A DNA stretch of 64,000 nucleotides from Escherichia coli. GTDB lineage: Bacteria; Pseudomonadota; Gammaproteobacteria; Enterobacterales; Enterobacteriaceae. Below, one piece after another: positions 8,187 through 19,198 of this stretch. Below the pieces are notes generated by a model. That model did no database searches. It was given only the letters and a program-made list of their open reading frames with translations, and was not told where the DNA came from. The translations under genes and the position numbers were made by a program. The stretch is taken from assembly GCF_048403405.1 (NCBI RefSeq), contig NZ_CP183129.1. One strand, 5' to 3'. Positions within the stretch are counted from its first letter, which is position 1, and the number at the start of each line of letters is the position of its first letter.

Positions 8187-9871
8187 TTGAAGAAGGTTTG
8201 GCTTAACCGTTATCCCGCGGACGTTCCGACGGAGATCAACCCTGACCGTTATCAATCTCTGGTAGATATGTTTGAGCAGTCGGTCGCGCGCTATGCCGAT
8301 CAACCCGCGTTTGTGAATATGGGGGAGGTGATGACCTTCCGCAAACTGGAAGAACGCAGTCGCGCGTTTGCCGCTTATTTGCAACAAGGGTTGGGACTGA
8401 AGAAAGGCGATCGCGTTGCGTTGATGATGCCTAATTTATTGCAATATCCGGTGGCGCTGTTTGGCATTTTGCGTGCCGGGATGATCGTTGTAAACGTTAA
8501 CCCGTTGTATACCCCGCGTGAGCTTGAGCATCAGCTTAACGATAGCGGCGCATCGGCGATTGTTATCGTGTCTAACTTTGCCCACACTCTGGAAAAAGTG
8601 GTTGATAAAACCGCCGTTCAGCACGTAATTCTGACCCGTATGGGCGATCAGCTATCTACGGCAAAAGGCACGGTAGTCAATTTCGTTGTTAAATACATCA
8701 AGCGTCTGGTGCCGAAATACCATCTGCCAGATGCCATTTCATTTCGTAGCGCCCTGCACAACGGCTACCGGATGCAGTACGTCAAACCCGAACTGGTGCC
8801 GGAAGATTTAGCTTTCCTGCAATACACCGGCGGTACCACTGGTGTGGCGAAAGGCGCGATGCTGACTCACCGCAATATGCTGGCGAACCTGGAACAGGTT
8901 AACGCGACCTATGGTCCGCTGTTGCATCCGGGCAAAGAGCTGGTGGTGACGGCGCTGCCGCTGTATCACATTTTTGCCCTGACCATTAACTGCCTGCTGT
9001 TTATCGAACTGGGGGGCAGAACCTGCTTATCACTAATCCGCGCGATATTCCTGGGTTGGTAAAAGAGTTAGCGAAATATCCGTTTACCGCTATCACTGGC
9101 GTTAACACCTTGTTCAATGCGTTGCTGAACAATAAAGAGTTCCAGCAGCTGGATTTCTCCAGTCTGCATCTTTCCGCAGGCGGAGGGATGCCTGTTCAGC
9201 AAGTGGTGGCAGAACGTTGGGTGAAACTGACTGGACAGTATCTGCTGGAAGGTTATGGCCTGACCGAGTGTGCGCCGCTGGTCAGCGTTAACCCGTATGA
9301 TATTGATTATCATAGCGGTAGCATCGGTTTGCCGGTGCCATCGACGGAAGCCAAACTGGTGGATGACGACGACAACGAAGTACCACCGGGTCAACCGGGT
9401 GAGCTTTGTGTCAAAGGGCCGCAGGTGATGCTGGGTTACTGGCAGCGTCCGGATGCTACCGATGAAATCATCAAAAATGGCTGGTTACACACCGGCGACA
9501 TCGCGGTGATGGATGAAGAAGGATTCCTGCGTATTGTCGATCGCAAAAAAGACATGATTCTGGTTTCCGGTTTTAACGTCTATCCCAACGAGATTGAAGA
9601 TGTCGTCATGCAGCATCCTGGCGTACAGGAAGTCGCGGCTGTTGGCGTACCTTCCGGCTCCAGTGGTGAAGCGGTGAAAATCTTCGTAGTGAAAAAAGAT
9701 CCATCGCTTACCGAAGAGTCACTGGTGACTTTTTGCCGCCGTCAGCTCACGGGCTACAAAGTACCGAAGTTGGTGGAGTTTCGTGATGAGTTACCGAAAT
9801 CTAACGTCGGAAAAATTTTGCGACGAGAATTACGTGACGAAGCGCGCGGCAAAGTGGACAATAAAGCCTGA
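8187..9871 (+). pseudogene. fadD: long-chain fatty acid-CoA ligase, interrupted by a -1 frameshift in this sequence
   Basis: TTG at 8187 reads [14 protein letters not shown]…FIELGG then hits a stop at 9060; the next frame continues [23 protein letters not shown]… to 9871; one base missing after the G6 run at 9011-9017; the two parts total 561 codons. Confidence 0.85.
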
Positions 9872-9888
9872 GCGTTAAGTCAGTCGTC

Positions 9889-9917
9889 AGACGCCGGTTA
9901 ATCCGGCGTTTTTTTTG
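9889..9917 (+). terminator. intrinsic terminator of fadD, immediately upstream of rnd
   Basis: Stem GACGCCGG / CCGGCGT with loop TTAAT followed by T8. Confidence 0.85.
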
Positions 9918-11074: not shown

Positions 11075-11117
11075 CCGAAGCCGGACTGGGCGCACTCAGC
11101 GCCACATCCGGCTTCGG
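11075..11117. terminator. composite palindrome between convergent rnd and yeaX
   Basis: Outer stem CCGAAGCCGGA / TCCGGCTTCGG enclosing inner GGGCGC / GCGCC hairpin. Confidence 0.55.
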
Positions 11118-11121
11118 CAAA

Positions 11122-12087
11122 CTACAAATCCAACACCAGGCGTTTACCCTTCGCGCGCGAACAACAGATCAACATACTTTGCTGGCTGGCACGCTCTTCA
11201 TCGCTAAAATACTGATCCCGATGGTCAGCTTCACCTTCCAGTATTGCCGTTTCGCAGGTTCCGCATACCCCTTCACGACATAAACATTCCACTTTCGCGG
11301 CTTTATTATTTTCAATAACCTGCAAAATAGTCATCTCTTCCGGCACCACAAACTCTTTACCGGAACGGGCAAGCACCAGGGTAAATGCATCGCCGGTTTT
11401 GTCTTCAATCGCAAATTGCTCAAAGTGCAGCGTATCGGCGGCGATGTCCAGATGCGCAGCTTCACTTCTTACAGCTTCAATTAGCGCCTCGGGGCCGCAG
11501 GTATAAACATGTGTGCCAGGTTCGATATCCGCCAATAATCGCGCTAATTCCAGTCGTGTTCCGGTTGATGAATGATGAAAATGAACTTTCTCAGCCTGCG
11601 GATGCTGGACTAGCTCATCACGAAATGCGCAACTTTCTGGATTTCGCGAGCAGTAATGTAACTGCCAGTCGACGTCGCTGTATTGCAACTCTGCCAGGTG
11701 TGACAGGAAAGGGGTGATACCAATACCGCCCGCGATAAACAGATGCTTTCTGGCCGAGGGAATTAGCGCAAACAGGTTATTAGGCGTTGAAATCGTTAAC
11801 CGATCGCCCACTTTTACCTGCTGATGCAAAAAGCGGGAACCGCCGCGCGAGTTTTCCTCCAGTCGAACGGCAATCTGATAACAAGAGGTGTCATGCGGCG
11901 AACTCAGTAGTGAATACGCATTGCTGTACTCGTTATCACCATCGCTCATCTGCACAATGACGTGACTTCCTCCGGTAAACGCAGGTAATGGTTTGCCATC
12001 GGTTGCCACCAGCATGAAGCGTTTCACCTGTTCGGTAAGCGGTTCAACCTGGCTCACCTGTACTTCAAACATTTGATAGTCTGACAT
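11122..12087 (-). CDS. yeaX: carnitine monooxygenase reductase subunit (FMN/2Fe-2S oxidoreductase)
   Basis: 321-aa ORF; C-terminal plant-type ferredoxin cysteines CREGVCGTCE. Confidence 0.9.
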   Translation of the reverse strand: MSDYQMFEVQVSQVEPLTEQVKRFMLVATDGKPLPAFTGGSHVIVQMSDGDNEYSNAYSLLSSPHDTSCYQIAVRLEENSRGGSRFLHQQVKVGDRLTISTPNNLFALIPSARKHLFIAGGIGITPFLSHLAELQYSDVDWQLHYCSRNPESCAFRDELVQHPQAEKVHFHHSSTGTRLELARLLADIEPGTHVYTCGPEALIEAVRSEAAHLDIAADTLHFEQFAIEDKTGDAFTLVLARSGKEFVVPEEMTILQVIENNKAAKVECLCREGVCGTCETAILEGEADHRDQYFSDEERASQQSMLICCSRAKGKRLVLDL

Positions 12088-12142
12088 TGCTGTACTCCAT
12101 CAAAAATCAGCCCAGCGGCGGAAAATACCGCCGCCGATGTCA

Positions 12143-13267
12143 TTAGTCCTTAAACACCTGCGCCAGCAGATTATGGAAGTGGGCGATACCATGTTCGGAA
12201 ATTCCGCTACCGCTACTGTCGGCCATGATGCGCCCCTGGCCACGATAGCCACGCGATTTCAGCCCTTTCTGTACGCTTTCAACCAGACGTAAATCTTCCG
12301 GACGGAACACATCGCGATACCACTCAATCAGCGATTTTTGCTCGTCGGTTAACTCTTCATTGGTGAAGTAAATATCGTAGTTTTGCAGGGTAGTTTCAGA
12401 ATCCACCGGGAATTCATAAATGACCGTCATCATCCCTTTGATCGGGGTGACGTTCAGCATCGTGCACGGCCACAGCCAGAAACCGTGGAATGCCGCATCC
12501 GTGCCCTCTTCGAATTTGAAAGACTGTTCGGACGGTTTGGCGAAACCGTACTGCAGCGTCCAGTTACCGTGCATGGTGTGCCAGTAACGATCAACCTGTA
12601 CGGAGTCGGAGAAACCTGGATGCGCCGGACCACAGTGATAGCACTCGAGATAGTTATCGACAATGTTCTTCCAGTTGGCAGGCGTGCGGGTGGTAAAGCG
12701 GGCCGCCAGTTTCAGATCGTGGACTTCCGGGCAGGCTTCCAGCACTTTCGCCCCCAGACCGGGTAACTGATCTTCTACGCTGGTGGCGTTGGGGTCCATG
12801 TTGATGAAGACGAATCCGGCATATTCTTCCAGACGCACCGGAACCAGTTGCGCTTTGTCGCTATCGAAATTGGCGACGTTTTCGCAGTTACGCGCATGGG
12901 CCAGATTACCATCGAGTTTGAATGCCCAGGCGTGATACGGGCAGGTAATCACATTTTTCGCTTTCCCTTCGCCGCTCAATAACTGATGACCACGGTGCGG
13001 GCAAACGTTATAGAACGCGCGCAAAACCTTATCACGACCACGTACCAGCACGATGCTTTCGCCAATGATCTCACGCGTCACATAATCATTGGCATTCGCC
13101 AGTTCGCTGCTGTGAGCGACGCAAATCCAGCTTTTGGCGAAGACGTTCTCTTTTTCGTGTTCAAAGGCGTTCTGATCGGTATAAAAACGGGCAGGAATGG
13201 TCCACGCCTCTTGCGGGTTAGCGCAAAAATTTTCGGGTAGTACAAAGTCAGGGCTCAGATTGCTCAT
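12143..13267 (-). CDS. yeaW: carnitine monooxygenase oxygenase subunit (Rieske 2Fe-2S)
   Basis: Start taken at MSNLSPDFVLPENF… (374 aa) rather than the 414-aa track ORF; Rieske motif CPHRGH…CPYHAW. Confidence 0.9.
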   Translation of the reverse strand: MSNLSPDFVLPENFCANPQEAWTIPARFYTDQNAFEHEKENVFAKSWICVAHSSELANANDYVTREIIGESIVLVRGRDKVLRAFYNVCPHRGHQLLSGEGKAKNVITCPYHAWAFKLDGNLAHARNCENVANFDSDKAQLVPVRLEEYAGFVFINMDPNATSVEDQLPGLGAKVLEACPEVHDLKLAARFTTRTPANWKNIVDNYLECYHCGPAHPGFSDSVQVDRYWHTMHGNWTLQYGFAKPSEQSFKFEEGTDAAFHGFWLWPCTMLNVTPIKGMMTVIYEFPVDSETTLQNYDIYFTNEELTDEQKSLIEWYRDVFRPEDLRLVESVQKGLKSRGYRGQGRIMADSSGSGISEHGIAHFHNLLAQVFKD

Positions 13268-13298
13268 AGGGTTACCTTTATCGTTAGGATGATGGCGC

Positions 13299-14909
13299 TC
13301 AGTTGTCGCCTTTGAATACGGTTCCCGCAGGGAGCACTGGCGTTTTTTCCGGGGCTTCAACCGGTGTCTGCGGGAGATAATGTTCAACTTGATGAGCCGG
13401 AATGTCGGCGTAATCCTGTTTCAGCCAGCGAATAAAGCCACCGACTTTCACCAGTAAAATAACGAGGAAGGGCAGGGCTGTAAGTACCACAGTGGTTTTC
13501 ATGGTTTCCAGCGACGCGCCAGTAAATAAGATAGACAGTGGAATCAGGGTGATAACCACGCACCAGAACAGGCGAAGAGCACGGTCAGGGTCGTCACCTT
13601 CCTTAAGATTTCGCGTACTGGTCGCCGCCATGGTGTAGGCCACCGCATCCATATGCGAGGCAAGGAAAATAATCATCACGCCCAGGTATGCGGCGAGGAA
13701 CAATTTACCGGCTGGCAACGACATCAGAACTTGCTGCACAGCTGTCTCGCCGCCCAGTGTTTCCAGCACCTGTGGGACGTTGATTACGCCATTGATAAAC
13801 TGGTGAATGGCATAGCTTTCCATTACGCCGAAGAAGAACCAGCAACCGACGGTGCTGCCGAGGATCAGTCCCCAGATAACTTCTTTAATCTTACGACCGC
13901 GTGAAACGCGTGTGACAAACATTGCTACGCCAGGGGTGTATGAAATCCACCACAGCCAGTAGAAAACGGTCCAGTTGCGGGGAAATGAACCATCGCCAAG
14001 CGGATCGGTGAATAAGCTCATTTGCAGGAAGTTTTGCGTGGTCAGGCCGATGGCATTGATGATGCTGTTGGTAATAAATTCGGTTGGACCGACAATCAGC
14101 ACCAGTAATGGCAGCAGGAACGCGCCCCAGCCAACCATTTTGCTCAGACGTTGCAAACCGTTGTTGATACCAATCCACGAGCTTAGGCAAAAAATGCCGC
14201 CGGAAAGCAGGATCACAAATGCCTGCACGGTGAAGTTATCGGGTAAACCGGTCAGCGCGGAAAGCCCACGAGTAAAGGTTGCTGCGGTAACAACAAGGGA
14301 AATGGTCAGCGCACCGACAGTGGCGATCAGGAACATCAAATCGACCAGTTTTCCCCACGGGCCTTGCGGGCGAACGCCGGTAATCGCGGCAATAATGCCG
14401 GAAAGGCTCAGACCTTTGTTTTTCCGCACATGAAAGTGATAAGCCATGATTAATGAGGCCAGCGTATAAGTTGCCCAGGCGCTGATGCCCCAGTGGAAGA
14501 AGGAGTAAGGGACGCTAAATTCGAGTGCCTGTTGTGAACGCGGTGCGATATTTAATCCAGGTGTTTGATAATAATAGGCCCATTCAGCACCCCCCCAATA
14601 AAGCGTAGAAGAACCTAAACCGGCACAAATAAACATAAACAGCCAGGAGAGCGTGCTGTATTCCGGTTTTCCTTCTCCAAGACGAATATTGCCGTATTTA
14701 CTGGTGGCTAAATAAATCACCAGTCCCATTGCCAGCAAAACCAATACCTGTACGGCGGAACCTAACGTACGCGTAACAAAAGTGTATATTGCGTTGGCCG
14801 CGTCGGCCGATTGTTGTGGGAAAAGGCTTAATGCAGCTGCGATGAAAAGAATGGCCACCAGGCTGATGCTTATCAGCGGCACATCTTTTTTCTTAACATT
14901 GCTCATCAT
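13299..14909 (-). CDS. yeaV: BCCT-family transporter (carnitine/betaine type)
   Basis: 536-aa ORF with 12 predicted TM segments, aligns along its length with CaiT-like transporters; exact start codon uncertain. Confidence 0.8.
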
Positions 14910-15113
14910 GAGTCATCTCCTGGGCATAAAAGCCCGTCTCTGGCTTTTGCCAGTTGTAATTATTTGCAGGGTAATGAGTTGCATGTTGTGTTTAACAAAT
15001 TGATTATTTACATGTTACATAAATTAAACAATTAAGAATACGGAAAGCCATAAAACACGAAACGGAAACAATAAAAGGTGAAATGACGCAGGTTATTAAC
15101 TGCAAAGAACGAA

Positions 15114-15140
15114 TAAAAAAACCGCGTCAGTGACGCGGTT
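15114..15140 (-). terminator. intrinsic terminator downstream of dmlA
   Basis: Perfect palindrome ACCGCGTCA-G-TGACGCGGT flanked by A7 on the plus strand (U-tract on minus). Confidence 0.8.
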
Positions 15141-15159
15141 CAAATAAACTGGTTTGACC

Positions 15160-16245
15160 TTAACGCAAAATAATTTTGCAAATCGCGTCGGCAACCTGTG
15201 GCGTGGTGGCATTGCCTTTCATATCAGGTGTTTTCGGCCCGTGAGCAATCACTTCTTCAATCGCGGCCAGAATACCGTTATGCGCTTGCTGGAAACGCTC
15301 ATCGCCATTGCCGAGAAAATCGAGCATCATTGCACCGGCCCAAATTGTGGCGATAGGGTTAGCAATGTTTTTCCCGTAGATATCCGGCGCGGAACCGTGG
15401 ACTGGCTCGAAGAGCGACGGGAAAGTGCGTTCCGGATTCAGGTTGGCGGATGGGGCAATGCCAATGGTGCCGGTGCAGGCCGGGCCAAGATCGGAAAGGA
15501 TATCGCCAAACAAATTGGACGCCACTACCACATCGAAGCGTTCCGGCTGCATCACAAAACGCGCGCAGAGAATATCAATATGCTGCTTGTCCCAGCAGAT
15601 CTCCGGGTAATTCTCGGCCATTGCTTCCACTCGCTCATCCCAGTACGGCATGCTGATGGCTAAACCGTTCGATTTAGTGGCAGAAGTTAGCGTCTTACGT
15701 GGGCGGCTTTGCGCAAGTTCGAAGGCATAACGCAAAATGCGATCGACACCACGACGCGTAAATACCGATTCCTGAATGACGACTTCATGCTCTGTACCTT
15801 CATTCACTCTGCCGCCGAGCGAGGAATATTCGCCTTCGGTGTTTTCCCTGACCACGTAAAAATCGATGTCGCCAGGCTGTTTTCCCGCCAGCGGGCAGGG
15901 AACGCCAGGAAAGAGACGAACCGGGCGCAGGTTGACGTACTGGTCGAATTCACGACGAAATTTCAGCAGCGAACCCCACAACGAAATATGGTCCGGAACG
16001 GTGTCCGGCCAGCCGACGGCACCAAAATAGATGGCGTCGAAACGGCTAAGTTGCTCATGCCAGTCGTCCGGCATCATTTTACCGTGATGGCTGTAATACT
16101 CGCAGCTCGCCCACTCCATTTGCTCAAAACTCAAGGCGAAGCCCCAGCGCTCAGCGGCAGCCTGTAACACGCGAATCCCTTCAGGAAGGACTTCTTTGCC
16201 AATCCCGTCTCCCGGGATCGCAGCAATACGCATCGTTTTCATCAT
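15160..16245 (-). CDS. dmlA: D-malate / 3-isopropylmalate dehydrogenase (decarboxylating)
   Basis: 361-aa ORF, isocitrate/isopropylmalate dehydrogenase family (MMKTMRIAAIPGDGIGKEV…). Confidence 0.92.
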   Translation of the reverse strand: MMKTMRIAAIPGDGIGKEVLPEGIRVLQAAAERWGFALSFEQMEWASCEYYSHHGKMMPDDWHEQLSRFDAIYFGAVGWPDTVPDHISLWGSLLKFRREFDQYVNLRPVRLFPGVPCPLAGKQPGDIDFYVVRENTEGEYSSLGGRVNEGTEHEVVIQESVFTRRGVDRILRYAFELAQSRPRKTLTSATKSNGLAISMPYWDERVEAMAENYPEICWDKQHIDILCARFVMQPERFDVVVASNLFGDILSDLGPACTGTIGIAPSANLNPERTFPSLFEPVHGSAPDIYGKNIANPIATIWAGAMMLDFLGNGDERFQQAHNGILAAIEEVIAHGPKTPDMKGNATTPQVADAICKIILR

Positions 16246-16347
16246 TGGGTTCTCACTTCCTGACCATCAAAATTGACAACATCACCATCCTATAATTGAC
16301 TGAAAAGGAATTAATCCCTGTAACTGGTGAAACATAAAACACGAATC

Positions 16348-17271
16348 ATGAATAATTTACCGCTGCTGAACGATTTGCGCGTCTTTATGCTGGTGGCTCG
16401 CCGGGCTGGTTTTGCCGCCGTGGCGGAAGAACTGGGCGTTTCTCCAGCGTTCGTCAGCAAGCGCATCGCCTTGCTGGAGCAAACGCTAAACGTGGTGTTG
16501 TTACACCGCACCACCCGCCGTGTCACCATTACCGAAGAAGGAGAGCGGATTTATGAATGGGCGCAGCGGATTTTGCAGGATGTCGGTCAAATGATGGACG
16601 AACTTTCTGACGTGCGTCAGGTGCCGCAGGGGATGCTGCGTATTATCAGCAGCTTTGGTTTTGGACGACAGGTGGTGGCCCCGGCGTTATCAGCGCTGGC
16701 GAAGGCGTATCCGCAACTGGAATTACGTTTTGATGTGGAAGACCGGTTGGTCGATTTGGTCAATGAAGGTGTCGATCTCGATATTCGCATTGGCGATGAT
16801 ATCGCCCCTAATTTAATCGCCCGCAAACTGGCGACCAATTATCGCATTCTCTGCGCGTCACCGGAATTTATTGCGCAACATGGCGCGCCGAAACATTTAA
16901 CCGATCTTTCTGCATTGCCGTGCCTGGTCATTAAAGAGCGCGATCATCCTTTTGGTGTCTGGCAATTACGCAATAAAGAAGGCCACCATGCGATTAAAGT
17001 TACCGGCCCACTGTCGTCTAATCATGGAGAAATTGTCCATCAGTGGTGTCTTGATGGGCAGGGGATTGCTCTGCGCTCCTGGTGGGATGTTAGCGAAAAT
17101 ATTGCCAGTGGTCATTTAGTGCAGTTGCTACCGGAATATTACCAGCCAGCGAATGTCTGGGCCGTTTATGTTTCAAGGCTGGCGACGTCAGCGAAAGTGC
17201 GGATAACGGTAGAATTTTTACGCCAGTATTTTGCCGAGCACTACCCGAATTTTTCACTGGAGCATGCCTGA
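16348..17271 (+). CDS. dmlR: LysR-family transcriptional regulator
   Basis: Track ORF from 16327; start taken at MNNLPLLNDLRVFMLVARR… (307 aa); divergent from dmlA. Confidence 0.88.
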   Translation: MNNLPLLNDLRVFMLVARRAGFAAVAEELGVSPAFVSKRIALLEQTLNVVLLHRTTRRVTITEEGERIYEWAQRILQDVGQMMDELSDVRQVPQGMLRIISSFGFGRQVVAPALSALAKAYPQLELRFDVEDRLVDLVNEGVDLDIRIGDDIAPNLIARKLATNYRILCASPEFIAQHGAPKHLTDLSALPCLVIKERDHPFGVWQLRNKEGHHAIKVTGPLSSNHGEIVHQWCLDGQGIALRSWWDVSENIASGHLVQLLPEYYQPANVWAVYVSRLATSAKVRITVEFLRQYFAEHYPNFSLEHA

Positions 17272-17328: not shown

Positions 17329-18036
<708 letters not shown>

Positions 18037-18043
18037 TGCTTTC

Positions 18044-18070
18044 AGCCCGCGTTGTCGCGGGCTTCCCATC
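18044..18070 (+). terminator. probable terminator of leuE (weak U-tract)
   Basis: Stem AGCCCGCG / CGCGGGCT with loop TTGT, followed by TCCCATCTG. Confidence 0.45.
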
Positions 18071-18119
18071 TGTAATCCTCCCTGATTCTTCTCTGATATG
18101 GTGCTAAAAAGTAACCAAT

Positions 18120-18143
18120 AAATGGTATTTAAAATGCAAATTA
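18120..18143 (+). promoter_or_regulatory. NsrR operator upstream of yeaR-yoaG
   Basis: AAATGGTATTTAAAATGCAAATTA resembles the NsrR 11-1-11 inverted repeat AAGATGCATTT-N-AAATGCATCTT; about 65 bp upstream of yeaR. Confidence 0.65.
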
Positions 18144-18208
18144 TCAGGCGTACCCTGAAACGGCTGGAATAAACCATTTTCAGCGCATTCACCGAAGGAG
18201 GGAAAAGG

Positions 18209-18568
18209 ATGCTGCAAATCCCACAGAATTATATTCATACGCGCTCAACGCCTTTCTGGAATAAACAAACTGCGCCTGCCGGAATATTCGAGCGTCATCT
18301 TGATAAAGGAACGCGCCCGGGAGTTTACCCACGCCTTTCCGTTATGCATGGGGCGGTCAAATATCTCGGCTACCCTGATGAACACAGTGCAGAGCCTGAT
18401 CAGGTGATCCTTATCGAAGCGGGGCAGTTTGCGGTGTTCCCTCCAGAAAAGTGGCACAACATTGAAGCCATGACTGACGATACTTATTTCAACATTGACT
18501 TCTTCGTTGCCCCTGAAGTCCTGATGGAAGGTGCGCAACAACGGAAAGTCATTCATAACGGGAAATGA
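18209..18568 (+). CDS. yeaR: DUF1971 protein (TehB C-terminal-like)
   Basis: 119-aa ORF MLQIPQNYIHTRSTPFWNK…. Confidence 0.9.
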   Translation: MLQIPQNYIHTRSTPFWNKQTAPAGIFERHLDKGTRPGVYPRLSVMHGAVKYLGYPDEHSAEPDQVILIEAGQFAVFPPEKWHNIEAMTDDTYFNIDFFVAPEVLMEGAQQRKVIHNGK

Positions 18569-18571
18569 ATC

Positions 18572-18754
18572 ATGGGCAAAGCAACGTATACCGTGACCGT
18601 CACCAATAACAGCAATGGCGTTTCTGTCGATTATGAAACAGAGACGCCGATGACTTTGCTGGTGCCAGAAGTGGCGGCTGAAGTGATAAAAGATCTGGTG
18701 AATACCGTGCGTTCTTATGACACGGAAAACGAACATGATGTTTGTGGTTGGTAA
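18572..18754 (+). CDS. yoaG: small protein co-transcribed with yeaR
   Basis: 60-aa ORF MGKATYTVTVTNNSNGVSVDYETETPM… starting 4 bp after the yeaR stop. Confidence 0.85.
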   Translation: MGKATYTVTVTNNSNGVSVDYETETPMTLLVPEVAAEVIKDLVNTVRSYDTENEHDVCGW

Positions 18755-18901
18755 TTATCACTGATCGTTGATGGCGCAATTTCTGCGCCATCGCAAAAAA
18801 ATCCTCCGTGATGCTCGTCACAAATCTTGCCCTCCCGATGTTGTGCTATGCTTTTTATCAGCGACTAACCCGCTAATGCAAAACAGATAAGTGAGGAAAC
18901 A

Positions 18902-19150
18902 ATGGGCATTCTGTCATGGATTATTTTTGGGCTTATTGCCGGTATTCTGGCGAAGTGGATCATGCCAGGTAAAGATGGTGGTGGATTCTTTATGACTATC
19001 CTGCTGGGGATAGTCGGTGCCGTAGTCGGCGGATGGATCAGCACGCTGTTTGGCTTTGGTAAAGTCGATGGCTTCAATTTTGGCAGCTTCGTGGTTGCCG
19101 TTATTGGCGCGATTGTCGTGCTGTTTATCTACAGAAAGATTAAAAGTTAA
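18902..19150 (+). CDS. yeaQ: GlsB/YeaQ/YmgE-family small membrane protein
   Basis: 82-aa ORF with glycine-rich TM helices (MGILSWIIFGLIAGILAKWIMPGKDGGG…). Confidence 0.9.
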   Translation: MGILSWIIFGLIAGILAKWIMPGKDGGGFFMTILLGIVGAVVGGWISTLFGFGKVDGFNFGSFVVAVIGAIVVLFIYRKIKS

Positions 19151-19163
19151 CGCGTAAATTGCA

Positions 19164-19198
19164 CAAAGGCTGCACACAGGCAGCCTTTGCTATTTTCT
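19164..19198 (+). terminator. intrinsic terminator of yeaQ
   Basis: Stem CAAAGGCTGC / GCAGCCTTTG with 6-nt loop, followed by CTATTTTCT. Confidence 0.8.

Follow-up and report, generated by a model that had tools for sequence, protein, structure and literature searches.

Does the inverted repeat in the gap between leuE and yeaR of this Escherichia coli genome serve as an operator for the repressor NsrR, and how would it act within the yeaR-yoaG promoter? Our analysis of the surrounding 64-kb stretch of DNA (the window) favours the reading that positions 18120-18142 are the NsrR operator of the yeaR-yoaG promoter. At this place NsrR would repress by covering the -35 element and part of the site of the activator NarL, and NO would relieve the repression; we put the probability of this reading at roughly 0.88. 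Its support from our own analysis consists of sequence identity, the significance of the match to a position weight matrix (PWM), the position within the promoter, and conservation. The regulation by NsrR, the activation by NarL, and the NO-sensing chemistry are taken from the literature.

The segment 18120-18143 reads AAATGGTATTTAAAATGCAAATTA, letter for letter as it had been quoted in the sequence-only reading that first pointed to it. Its placement in the leuE-yeaR gap also holds, the site lying inside the 172-bp space between leuE (17398-18036) and yeaR (Table 1). The gene order around it is dmlA, dmlR, leuE, yeaR, yoaG, yeaQ, yoaJ, yoaK, and dgcP, the same as in K-12. The region 17950-18300 matches 5,417 of 5,426 complete E. 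coli genomes (megablast), in which the flanking genes are annotated as leuE and yeaR. The start of yoaG lies 3 nt past yeaR, and the 2 genes are co-transcribed. The description of the segment as a near-palindromic 11-1-11 site needs a small correction. The 11-1-11 unit is the 23-bp AAATGGTATTTAAAATGCAAATT at 18120-18142, and A18143 is a surplus base, an off-by-one error. The left half-site is AAATGGTATTT and the reverse complement of the right half-site is AATTTGCATTT, with 8 of the 11 half-site pairs symmetric. Palindromy was rejected as evidence because an 11-1-11 frame with 8 or more symmetric pairs out of 11 occurs at 108 positions of the window, and symmetry of this degree is therefore not beyond chance by itself.

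Table 1. Coordinates of the promoter elements and genes at the yeaR-yoaG locus (positions in the window).
Feature	Coordinates	Strand	Basis
NarL 7-2-7 activator site TAACCAA-TA-AATGGTA, centre -43.5	18112..18127	.	PMC10853779 sequence mapped to the window
NsrR operator, 11-1-11 inverted repeat AAATGGTATTT-A-AAATGCAAATT	18120..18142	.	Identity to published site, PWM, conservation
Probable -35 hexamer TTTAAA (weak), -35 to -30, inside the operator	18128..18133	+	-43.5 anchor and 17-bp spacer
Probable -10 hexamer TACCCT, -12 to -7	18151..18156	+	-43.5 anchor
Predicted transcription start G (+1), 46-nt leader	18163..18163	+	Computed from NarL centre -43.5
Shine-Dalgarno AAGGAGGG, 6 nt before yeaR ATG	18195..18202	+	Sequence; GAGG/AAGG core conserved
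yeaR, 119 aa, DUF1971	18209..18568	+	ORF, RefSeq annotation, Pfam PF09313 (E = 1.7e-22)
yoaG, 60 aa, DUF1869	18572..18754	+	ORF, annotation, Pfam PF08956 (E = 4.7e-33)

Base for base, the 23-mer is the yeaR NsrR site of Table 4 in Mehta et al. 2015 (PMC5320621), where it is listed with a PatSer ln(P) of -17.05, and the copy of strain CFT073 was found at the published coordinate. The 172-bp intergenic region differs from that of K-12 MG1655 only by 3 substitutions (18072, 18092, and 18176), and neither the operator nor the core promoter is touched by them. K-12 therefore has all 23 bp of the operator in the same context (leuE-yeaR-yoaG-yeaQ), together with the overlapping NarL site, the -10 element, the +1 position, and the ribosome-binding site. 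Judged by these comparisons of sequence, the window site is the yeaR NsrR operator of K-12 and CFT073 itself and not a mere lookalike. What the site is, which regulator it serves, and how NarL and NsrR combine in a dual logic are already known. Since all this was published in 2007 and re-listed in 2015, the identification has little weight as a discovery, and its value is that of a positive control, a real operator recognised from sequence alone.

The NO-responsive NsrR control of yeaR-yoaG that the sequence-only reading proposed is supported by the identity to the published site and by the literature. Its qualifier "in this strain" adds nothing, because K-12 and CFT073 carry the very same site, and 88% of complete E. 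coli genomes share the 60-bp core without a difference. For this core (18108-18167), 4,758 of 5,416 complete genomes show 100% identity, and the remainder are 1-2 bases off.

The match to the NsrR consensus was then scored with a symmetrised PWM built from those 16 entries of Table 4 in Mehta et al. 2015 (PMC5320621) that have an NsrR ChIP-seq peak. Since yeaR is without such a peak, it was left out of the matrix by construction. The operator scored 20.9 bits against the window background and 21.0 bits against a uniform background, and 18 of its 23 bases equal the majority consensus of the matrix. It ranked first among 63,978 window positions. The second best position reached 11.1 bits, and the PWM scan of the window found no further NsrR site above this value. 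Formal PWM scoring, which had been proposed beforehand as a way to refute the consensus match, thus gave a high score. The operator would stand 7th among the 16 training sites, which range from 12.8 to 31.1 bits. Its 2 half-sites contribute 11.5 and 9.8 bits, and the only strongly disfavoured base is the A at operator position 21, which is absent from the 16 ChIP-positive sites and costs 5 bits. None of 3,000,000 Markov-1 random positions reached the operator score. The exact probability per position, obtained by dynamic programming, is 3.9e-8 for a uniform background, 4.3e-7 at 65% AT, and 1.3e-6 at 75% AT, and at most 2e-4 chance matches at this score are expected within the intergenic gap. 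A match of this quality to the NsrR matrix far exceeds what chance would give.

These values bear on the idea that the resemblance is coincidental and that the 23-mer consists only of the proximal NarL heptamer followed by AT-rich -35 and spacer DNA. The 23-mer does have 8 bp in common with the NarL site and 6 bp that form the -35 hexamer, chance PWM matches are commoner in AT-rich promoter DNA, and bare 11-1-11 palindromy is as frequent as described above. However, the probability stays at the above value even for the most AT-rich background, and no other position in 64 kb comes near the operator score. Together with the conservation described below, the PWM result already disfavours coincidence, and we regard it as highly improbable.

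The promoter coordinates were anchored on the published centre of the NarL site. The yeaR promoter is the template used for cryo-EM of the NarL activation complex, in whose structure the NarL 7-2-7 site is given as TAACCAATAAATGGTA, centred at -43.5, with an "intrinsically weak -35 element" just downstream (PMC10853779). The transcription start predicted from this anchor, G18163, fits the transcript that begins with G on the native scaffold, -59 to +1 (PMC10853779), and the exact -35 and -10 hexamers given in Table 1 are probable assignments. With the NarL site at 18112-18127 centred at -43.5, the operator spans -43 to -21, and its centre (18131) falls at -32, over the -35 element. For K-12, the NsrR operator in the yeaR-yoaG promoter was reportedly described by Lin, Bledsoe, and Stewart (2007, J Bacteriol 189:7539), in an abstract said to contain the words "NsrR operator centered at position -32", with which our computed centre presumably agrees. 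NarL recognises the heptamer consensus TACYYMT, here as 2 inverted heptamers related to it, with a 2-bp gap, adjoining the -35 element. The E. coli site TAACCAA-TA-AATGGTA has 5+5 of the 14 consensus bases and is identical to the site in the NarL transcription activation complex as resolved by cryo-EM. The consensus match alone is weak, at least 10 of 14 bases being found at 210 window positions. A simple σ70 consensus scan of 17950-18300 did not find the promoter. This was to be expected of a weak promoter that depends on an activator, and the scan is therefore uninformative.

The 8 bp at 18120-18127, which belong to the NarL site on its promoter-proximal side, lie within the left NsrR half-site. 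The operator thus extends over the NarL heptamer nearer to the promoter and over the -35 hexamer, a position that is compatible with repression. The overlap with both elements implies dual control, by nitrate and nitrite through NarL and by NO through NsrR. The sequence-only reading, right about NO and NsrR, had missed this overlap of the operator with the -35 element and with the 7-2-7 site from which NarL activates.

A mechanism can be proposed from this arrangement. A dimer of [Fe-S]-NsrR, an NO-sensing repressor of the Rrf2 family, would bind the 11-1-11 repeat at -43 to -21 and would thereby come to lie over both the promoter-proximal NarL heptamer and the weak -35 hexamer. Bound NsrR would block σ70 RNA polymerase, presumably by steric occlusion of σ region 4 and of the assembly of αCTD with NarL, which is sited around -43.5 in the cryo-EM structure (PMC10853779). 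It probably competes with phospho-NarL, the activator that acts from the 7-2-7 site at -43.5. In general NsrR chemistry, NO inactivates the [Fe-S] cluster and relieves repression. At yeaR, nitrosylation of the cluster would make NsrR leave the operator, allowing NarL-dependent transcription. The yeaR-yoaG operon would in this way integrate nitrate and nitrite, sensed through NarX/Q-NarL, with NO, sensed through NsrR.

Conservation was examined in orthologous loci obtained by a YeaR-guided scan with one genome per species, which gave 26 usable loci from Escherichia (coli, albertii, and whittamii), many Citrobacter, Salmonella enterica subsp. arizonae and diarizonae, and Silvania. In all 26 loci (approximately 3.3 kb each), the best PWM match is an NsrR-type site located 73-84 bp upstream of the yeaR ATG, with scores of 11.4-24.2 bits. 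The alignment A3 footprint shows that the central GTATTTnAAATGC, the -10 element TAnCCT, and the +1 G are invariant or nearly so, and the flanks are unalignable. The central ATTTnAAAT coincides with the -35 element, so part of its conservation could be due to the promoter. Although the right half-site is situated outside the NarL site and in the -35/-10 spacer, on whose sequence RNA polymerase places few demands, its AAATGC core is nearly invariant across 4 genera. That this core is conserved outside both the NarL site and the -35 element points to a protein distinct from RNA polymerase and NarL and counts against a coincidental resemblance. The 7-2-7 NarL match is kept in the same register in Escherichia, Citrobacter, and Salmonella. 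In the Silvania locus the NsrR site is near-consensus (AAGTCGCATTTTAAATGCATTTT, 23.2 bits), and no NarL-like site was found in the yeaR promoter there (3+4 of 14 to the 7-2-7 consensus). This occurrence of the NsrR site without a NarL-like site also speaks against coincidence.

Conservation of the operator pattern bears as well on the proposal that the AT-rich tract mainly serves a nucleoid-associated protein, for which Fis is the candidate. The title of Squire et al. 2009, which concerns the yeaR promoter, points in this direction, and Fis is reported to repress the promoter in competition with NarL. Fis sites, however, are degenerate, and Fis would explain neither the specific 11-1-11 pattern nor its conservation; binding of Fis is in any case compatible with binding of NsrR. 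As the main role of the tract, we consider a Fis site very improbable and retain the NsrR operator as the preferred reading.

The regulator gene nsrR is not inside the 64-kb window. Of 5,426 complete E. coli genomes, all but one (5,425) have a full-length match to K-12 nsrR, from which its presence in the source strain follows by inference, and this strain almost certainly encodes nsrR. Genetic support for NsrR control of yeaR is drawn second-hand from published statements. The gene is described as "known to be regulated by NsrR" (PMC5320621, citing 2007 work), and further papers place yeaR-yoaG in the NsrR regulon and also under NarL. When NsrR of CFT073 was mapped by ChIP-seq in aerobic LB cultures, yeaR, ygbA, tehA, and gadX were without a peak, and the authors judged the misses of yeaR and ygbA to be probable false negatives (PMC5320621). 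Likewise, yeaR is missing from the NsrR targets listed as common to the CFT073 ChIP-seq and the K-12 ChIP-chip data (PMC5320621). In a CFT073 triple mutant in NO detoxification, nitrate induced yeaR and yoaG 160-168-fold, an induction that leaves the effects of NarL and NsrR unseparated.

Part of this evidence would suit a genuine sequence match with weak or conditional occupancy, in which the response of yeaR-yoaG to NO and nitrite is mostly due to NarL or NarP and NsrR plays a minor role. Apart from the lack of a ChIP-seq peak in CFT073 (PMC5320621), NarL alone gives full activation in vitro and in reporter assays (PMC10853779), the yeaR promoter (PyeaR) is employed in biosensor work purely as a NarL-driven nitrate sensor, and the disfavoured base in the right half-site costs 5 bits. 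On the other hand, the operator score is mid-range among the ChIP-positive sites, and the same ChIP-seq missed ygbA, an accepted NsrR target (PMC5320621). The right half-site is conserved within the -35/-10 spacer, and regulation by NsrR is stated in the cited literature. Weak occupancy with a minor role for NsrR thus appears unlikely, and repression from the operator remains the preferred reading. For users of PyeaR, which is in use as a part of biosensors for nitrate and inflammation, the NsrR operator sits within the part, and titration of the host NsrR or NO would therefore modulate the output independently of NarL.

The yeaR site can be compared with the canonical NsrR operators of ytfE, hmp, and hcp (AAGATGCATTTnAAATGCATCTT type). 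It has the same 11-1-11 geometry, the common ATTTnAAAT centre, and GC or GT at positions 6-7 and 17-18, and in all of them the operator overlaps core promoter elements and has a repressor role. In contrast to these operators, the yeaR site departs from the majority consensus at 5 of 23 positions and has 8 bp in common with a NarL activator site; ytfE, hcp, and hmp gave ChIP-seq peaks, whereas yeaR gave none. With respect to NarL, the closest counterpart is the ogt promoter of E. coli, likewise NarL-activated through a 7-2-7 site adjoining the -35 element, centred at -44.5 instead of -43.5. Activation of both promoters is independent of Fnr, and Fis antagonism has been reported for both. However, ogt requires 2 tandem NarL sites, and an overlapping NsrR 11-1-11 operator is not described for it in the literature examined.

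The only by-products of the analysis that are mildly new are a polymorphism at operator position 16 in the O157:H7 lineage and, in Citrobacter, the fact that the NarL and NsrR matches are kept together while the sequence turns over. The T>A change at position 16 (18135) occurs in 295 complete E. coli genomes, essentially the O157:H7 lineage (for example, NZ_CP017444.1). It converts AAATGC of the right half-site to AAAAGC and lowers the PWM score from 21.0 to 16.5 bits. The change sits in the ATGC core of the right half and leaves the NarL site and the -35 element untouched. Some O157:H7 strains, such as PV15-279, keep the common operator allele. The substitution could partly derepress yeaR-yoaG in this lineage; if so, the pathotype would have a higher basal or a more sensitive response to NO. 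Two further variants were observed. In the divergent strain N96, the operator carries ATGC>ATAC at 18136, which is still compatible with the consensus (20.1 bits). In UTAK-2, E. whittamii, and Escherichia sp. E1V33, the -10 element is changed from TACCCT to TACTCT (18154), one step nearer to TATAAT.

In 3 loci of the Citrobacter sedlakii/amalonaticus type, the 8 bp shared by the NarL and NsrR sites are changed from AAATGGTA to TTGGTGTA. The NsrR match is held at 21.1-21.6 bits despite this change, and the left half comes to resemble that of hmp (TTGATGTATCT). The composite site of the C. sedlakii type, TGCCCCT-TT-TGGTGTATTT..., lies approximately 75-100 bp upstream of yeaR, and neither match has shifted its register. 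The reading that the upstream sequence of this type (TGCCCCTTTTGGTGTA) has lost the NarL site was considered and rejected, the 7-2-7 match being 6+5 of 14 (11/14) in the same register, compared with 5+5 of 14 in E. coli. In Citrobacter, the composite NarL/NsrR site appears to have co-evolved as its sequence turned over, and in Silvania control of the operon may be by NsrR alone. Turnover in Citrobacter with both matches kept, along with the candidate NsrR-only promoter of Silvania, hints that NsrR control is the older layer. Taken jointly, a derepressing O157 allele, co-evolution in Citrobacter, and an older NsrR layer with NsrR-only control in Silvania form a speculative picture that we hold to be doubtful.

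Several further observations were made around the locus. A GC-rich hairpin, AGCCCGCG-TTGT-CGCGGGCT, lies at 18044-18063, 8 nt past the leuE stop codon. It is without a following T-run (TCCCATCTG) and was not called by the terminator scan, and a GC-rich hairpin occupies the equivalent place after leuE in most Escherichia, Citrobacter, and Salmonella loci. Downstream of yoaG, no terminator-like hairpin is present between its end (18754) and yeaQ (18902-19150) in the examined region 18755-19190; the first good one lies past yeaQ, at 19164-19189. The yoaG-yeaQ gap is filled by a 40-aa ORF (18768-18890). A study of uropathogenic E. coli regarded yeaR-yoaG-(40-aa ORF)-yeaQ as a possible 4-gene operon, yet induction of yeaQ was not seen. 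In the CFT073 RNA-seq data, the neighbours "c2201" and "c2203" were induced about 140-fold along with yeaR and yoaG.

In the set of complete E. coli assemblies, 2 "places on plasmids" were counted for nsrR and likewise 2 for the yeaR promoter region; mislabelled replicons or plasmids with large pieces of chromosome may account for them. The 234-bp contig NZ_VLXZ01000426.1 (0.8x coverage), from an assembly labelled Alkalicoccobacillus porphyridii, encodes part of a YeaR with 98% identity to that of E. coli, and E. coli DNA contaminating the assembly is its most likely source. The 64-kb window gave no tRNA genes, and the sRNA sroD at 9830-9915 (+ strand, 115 bits) is its sole match at the Rfam gathering level. 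Between rnd and leuE, the genes yeaX-yeaW-yeaV-dmlA-dmlR are intact in the window (about 11100-17271) and in strain 4621. In CFT073, what comes directly after rnd are short remnants of dmlA and dmlR, now pseudogenes; the deletion there comprises the carnitine monooxygenase/D-malate block and ends just upstream of leuE.
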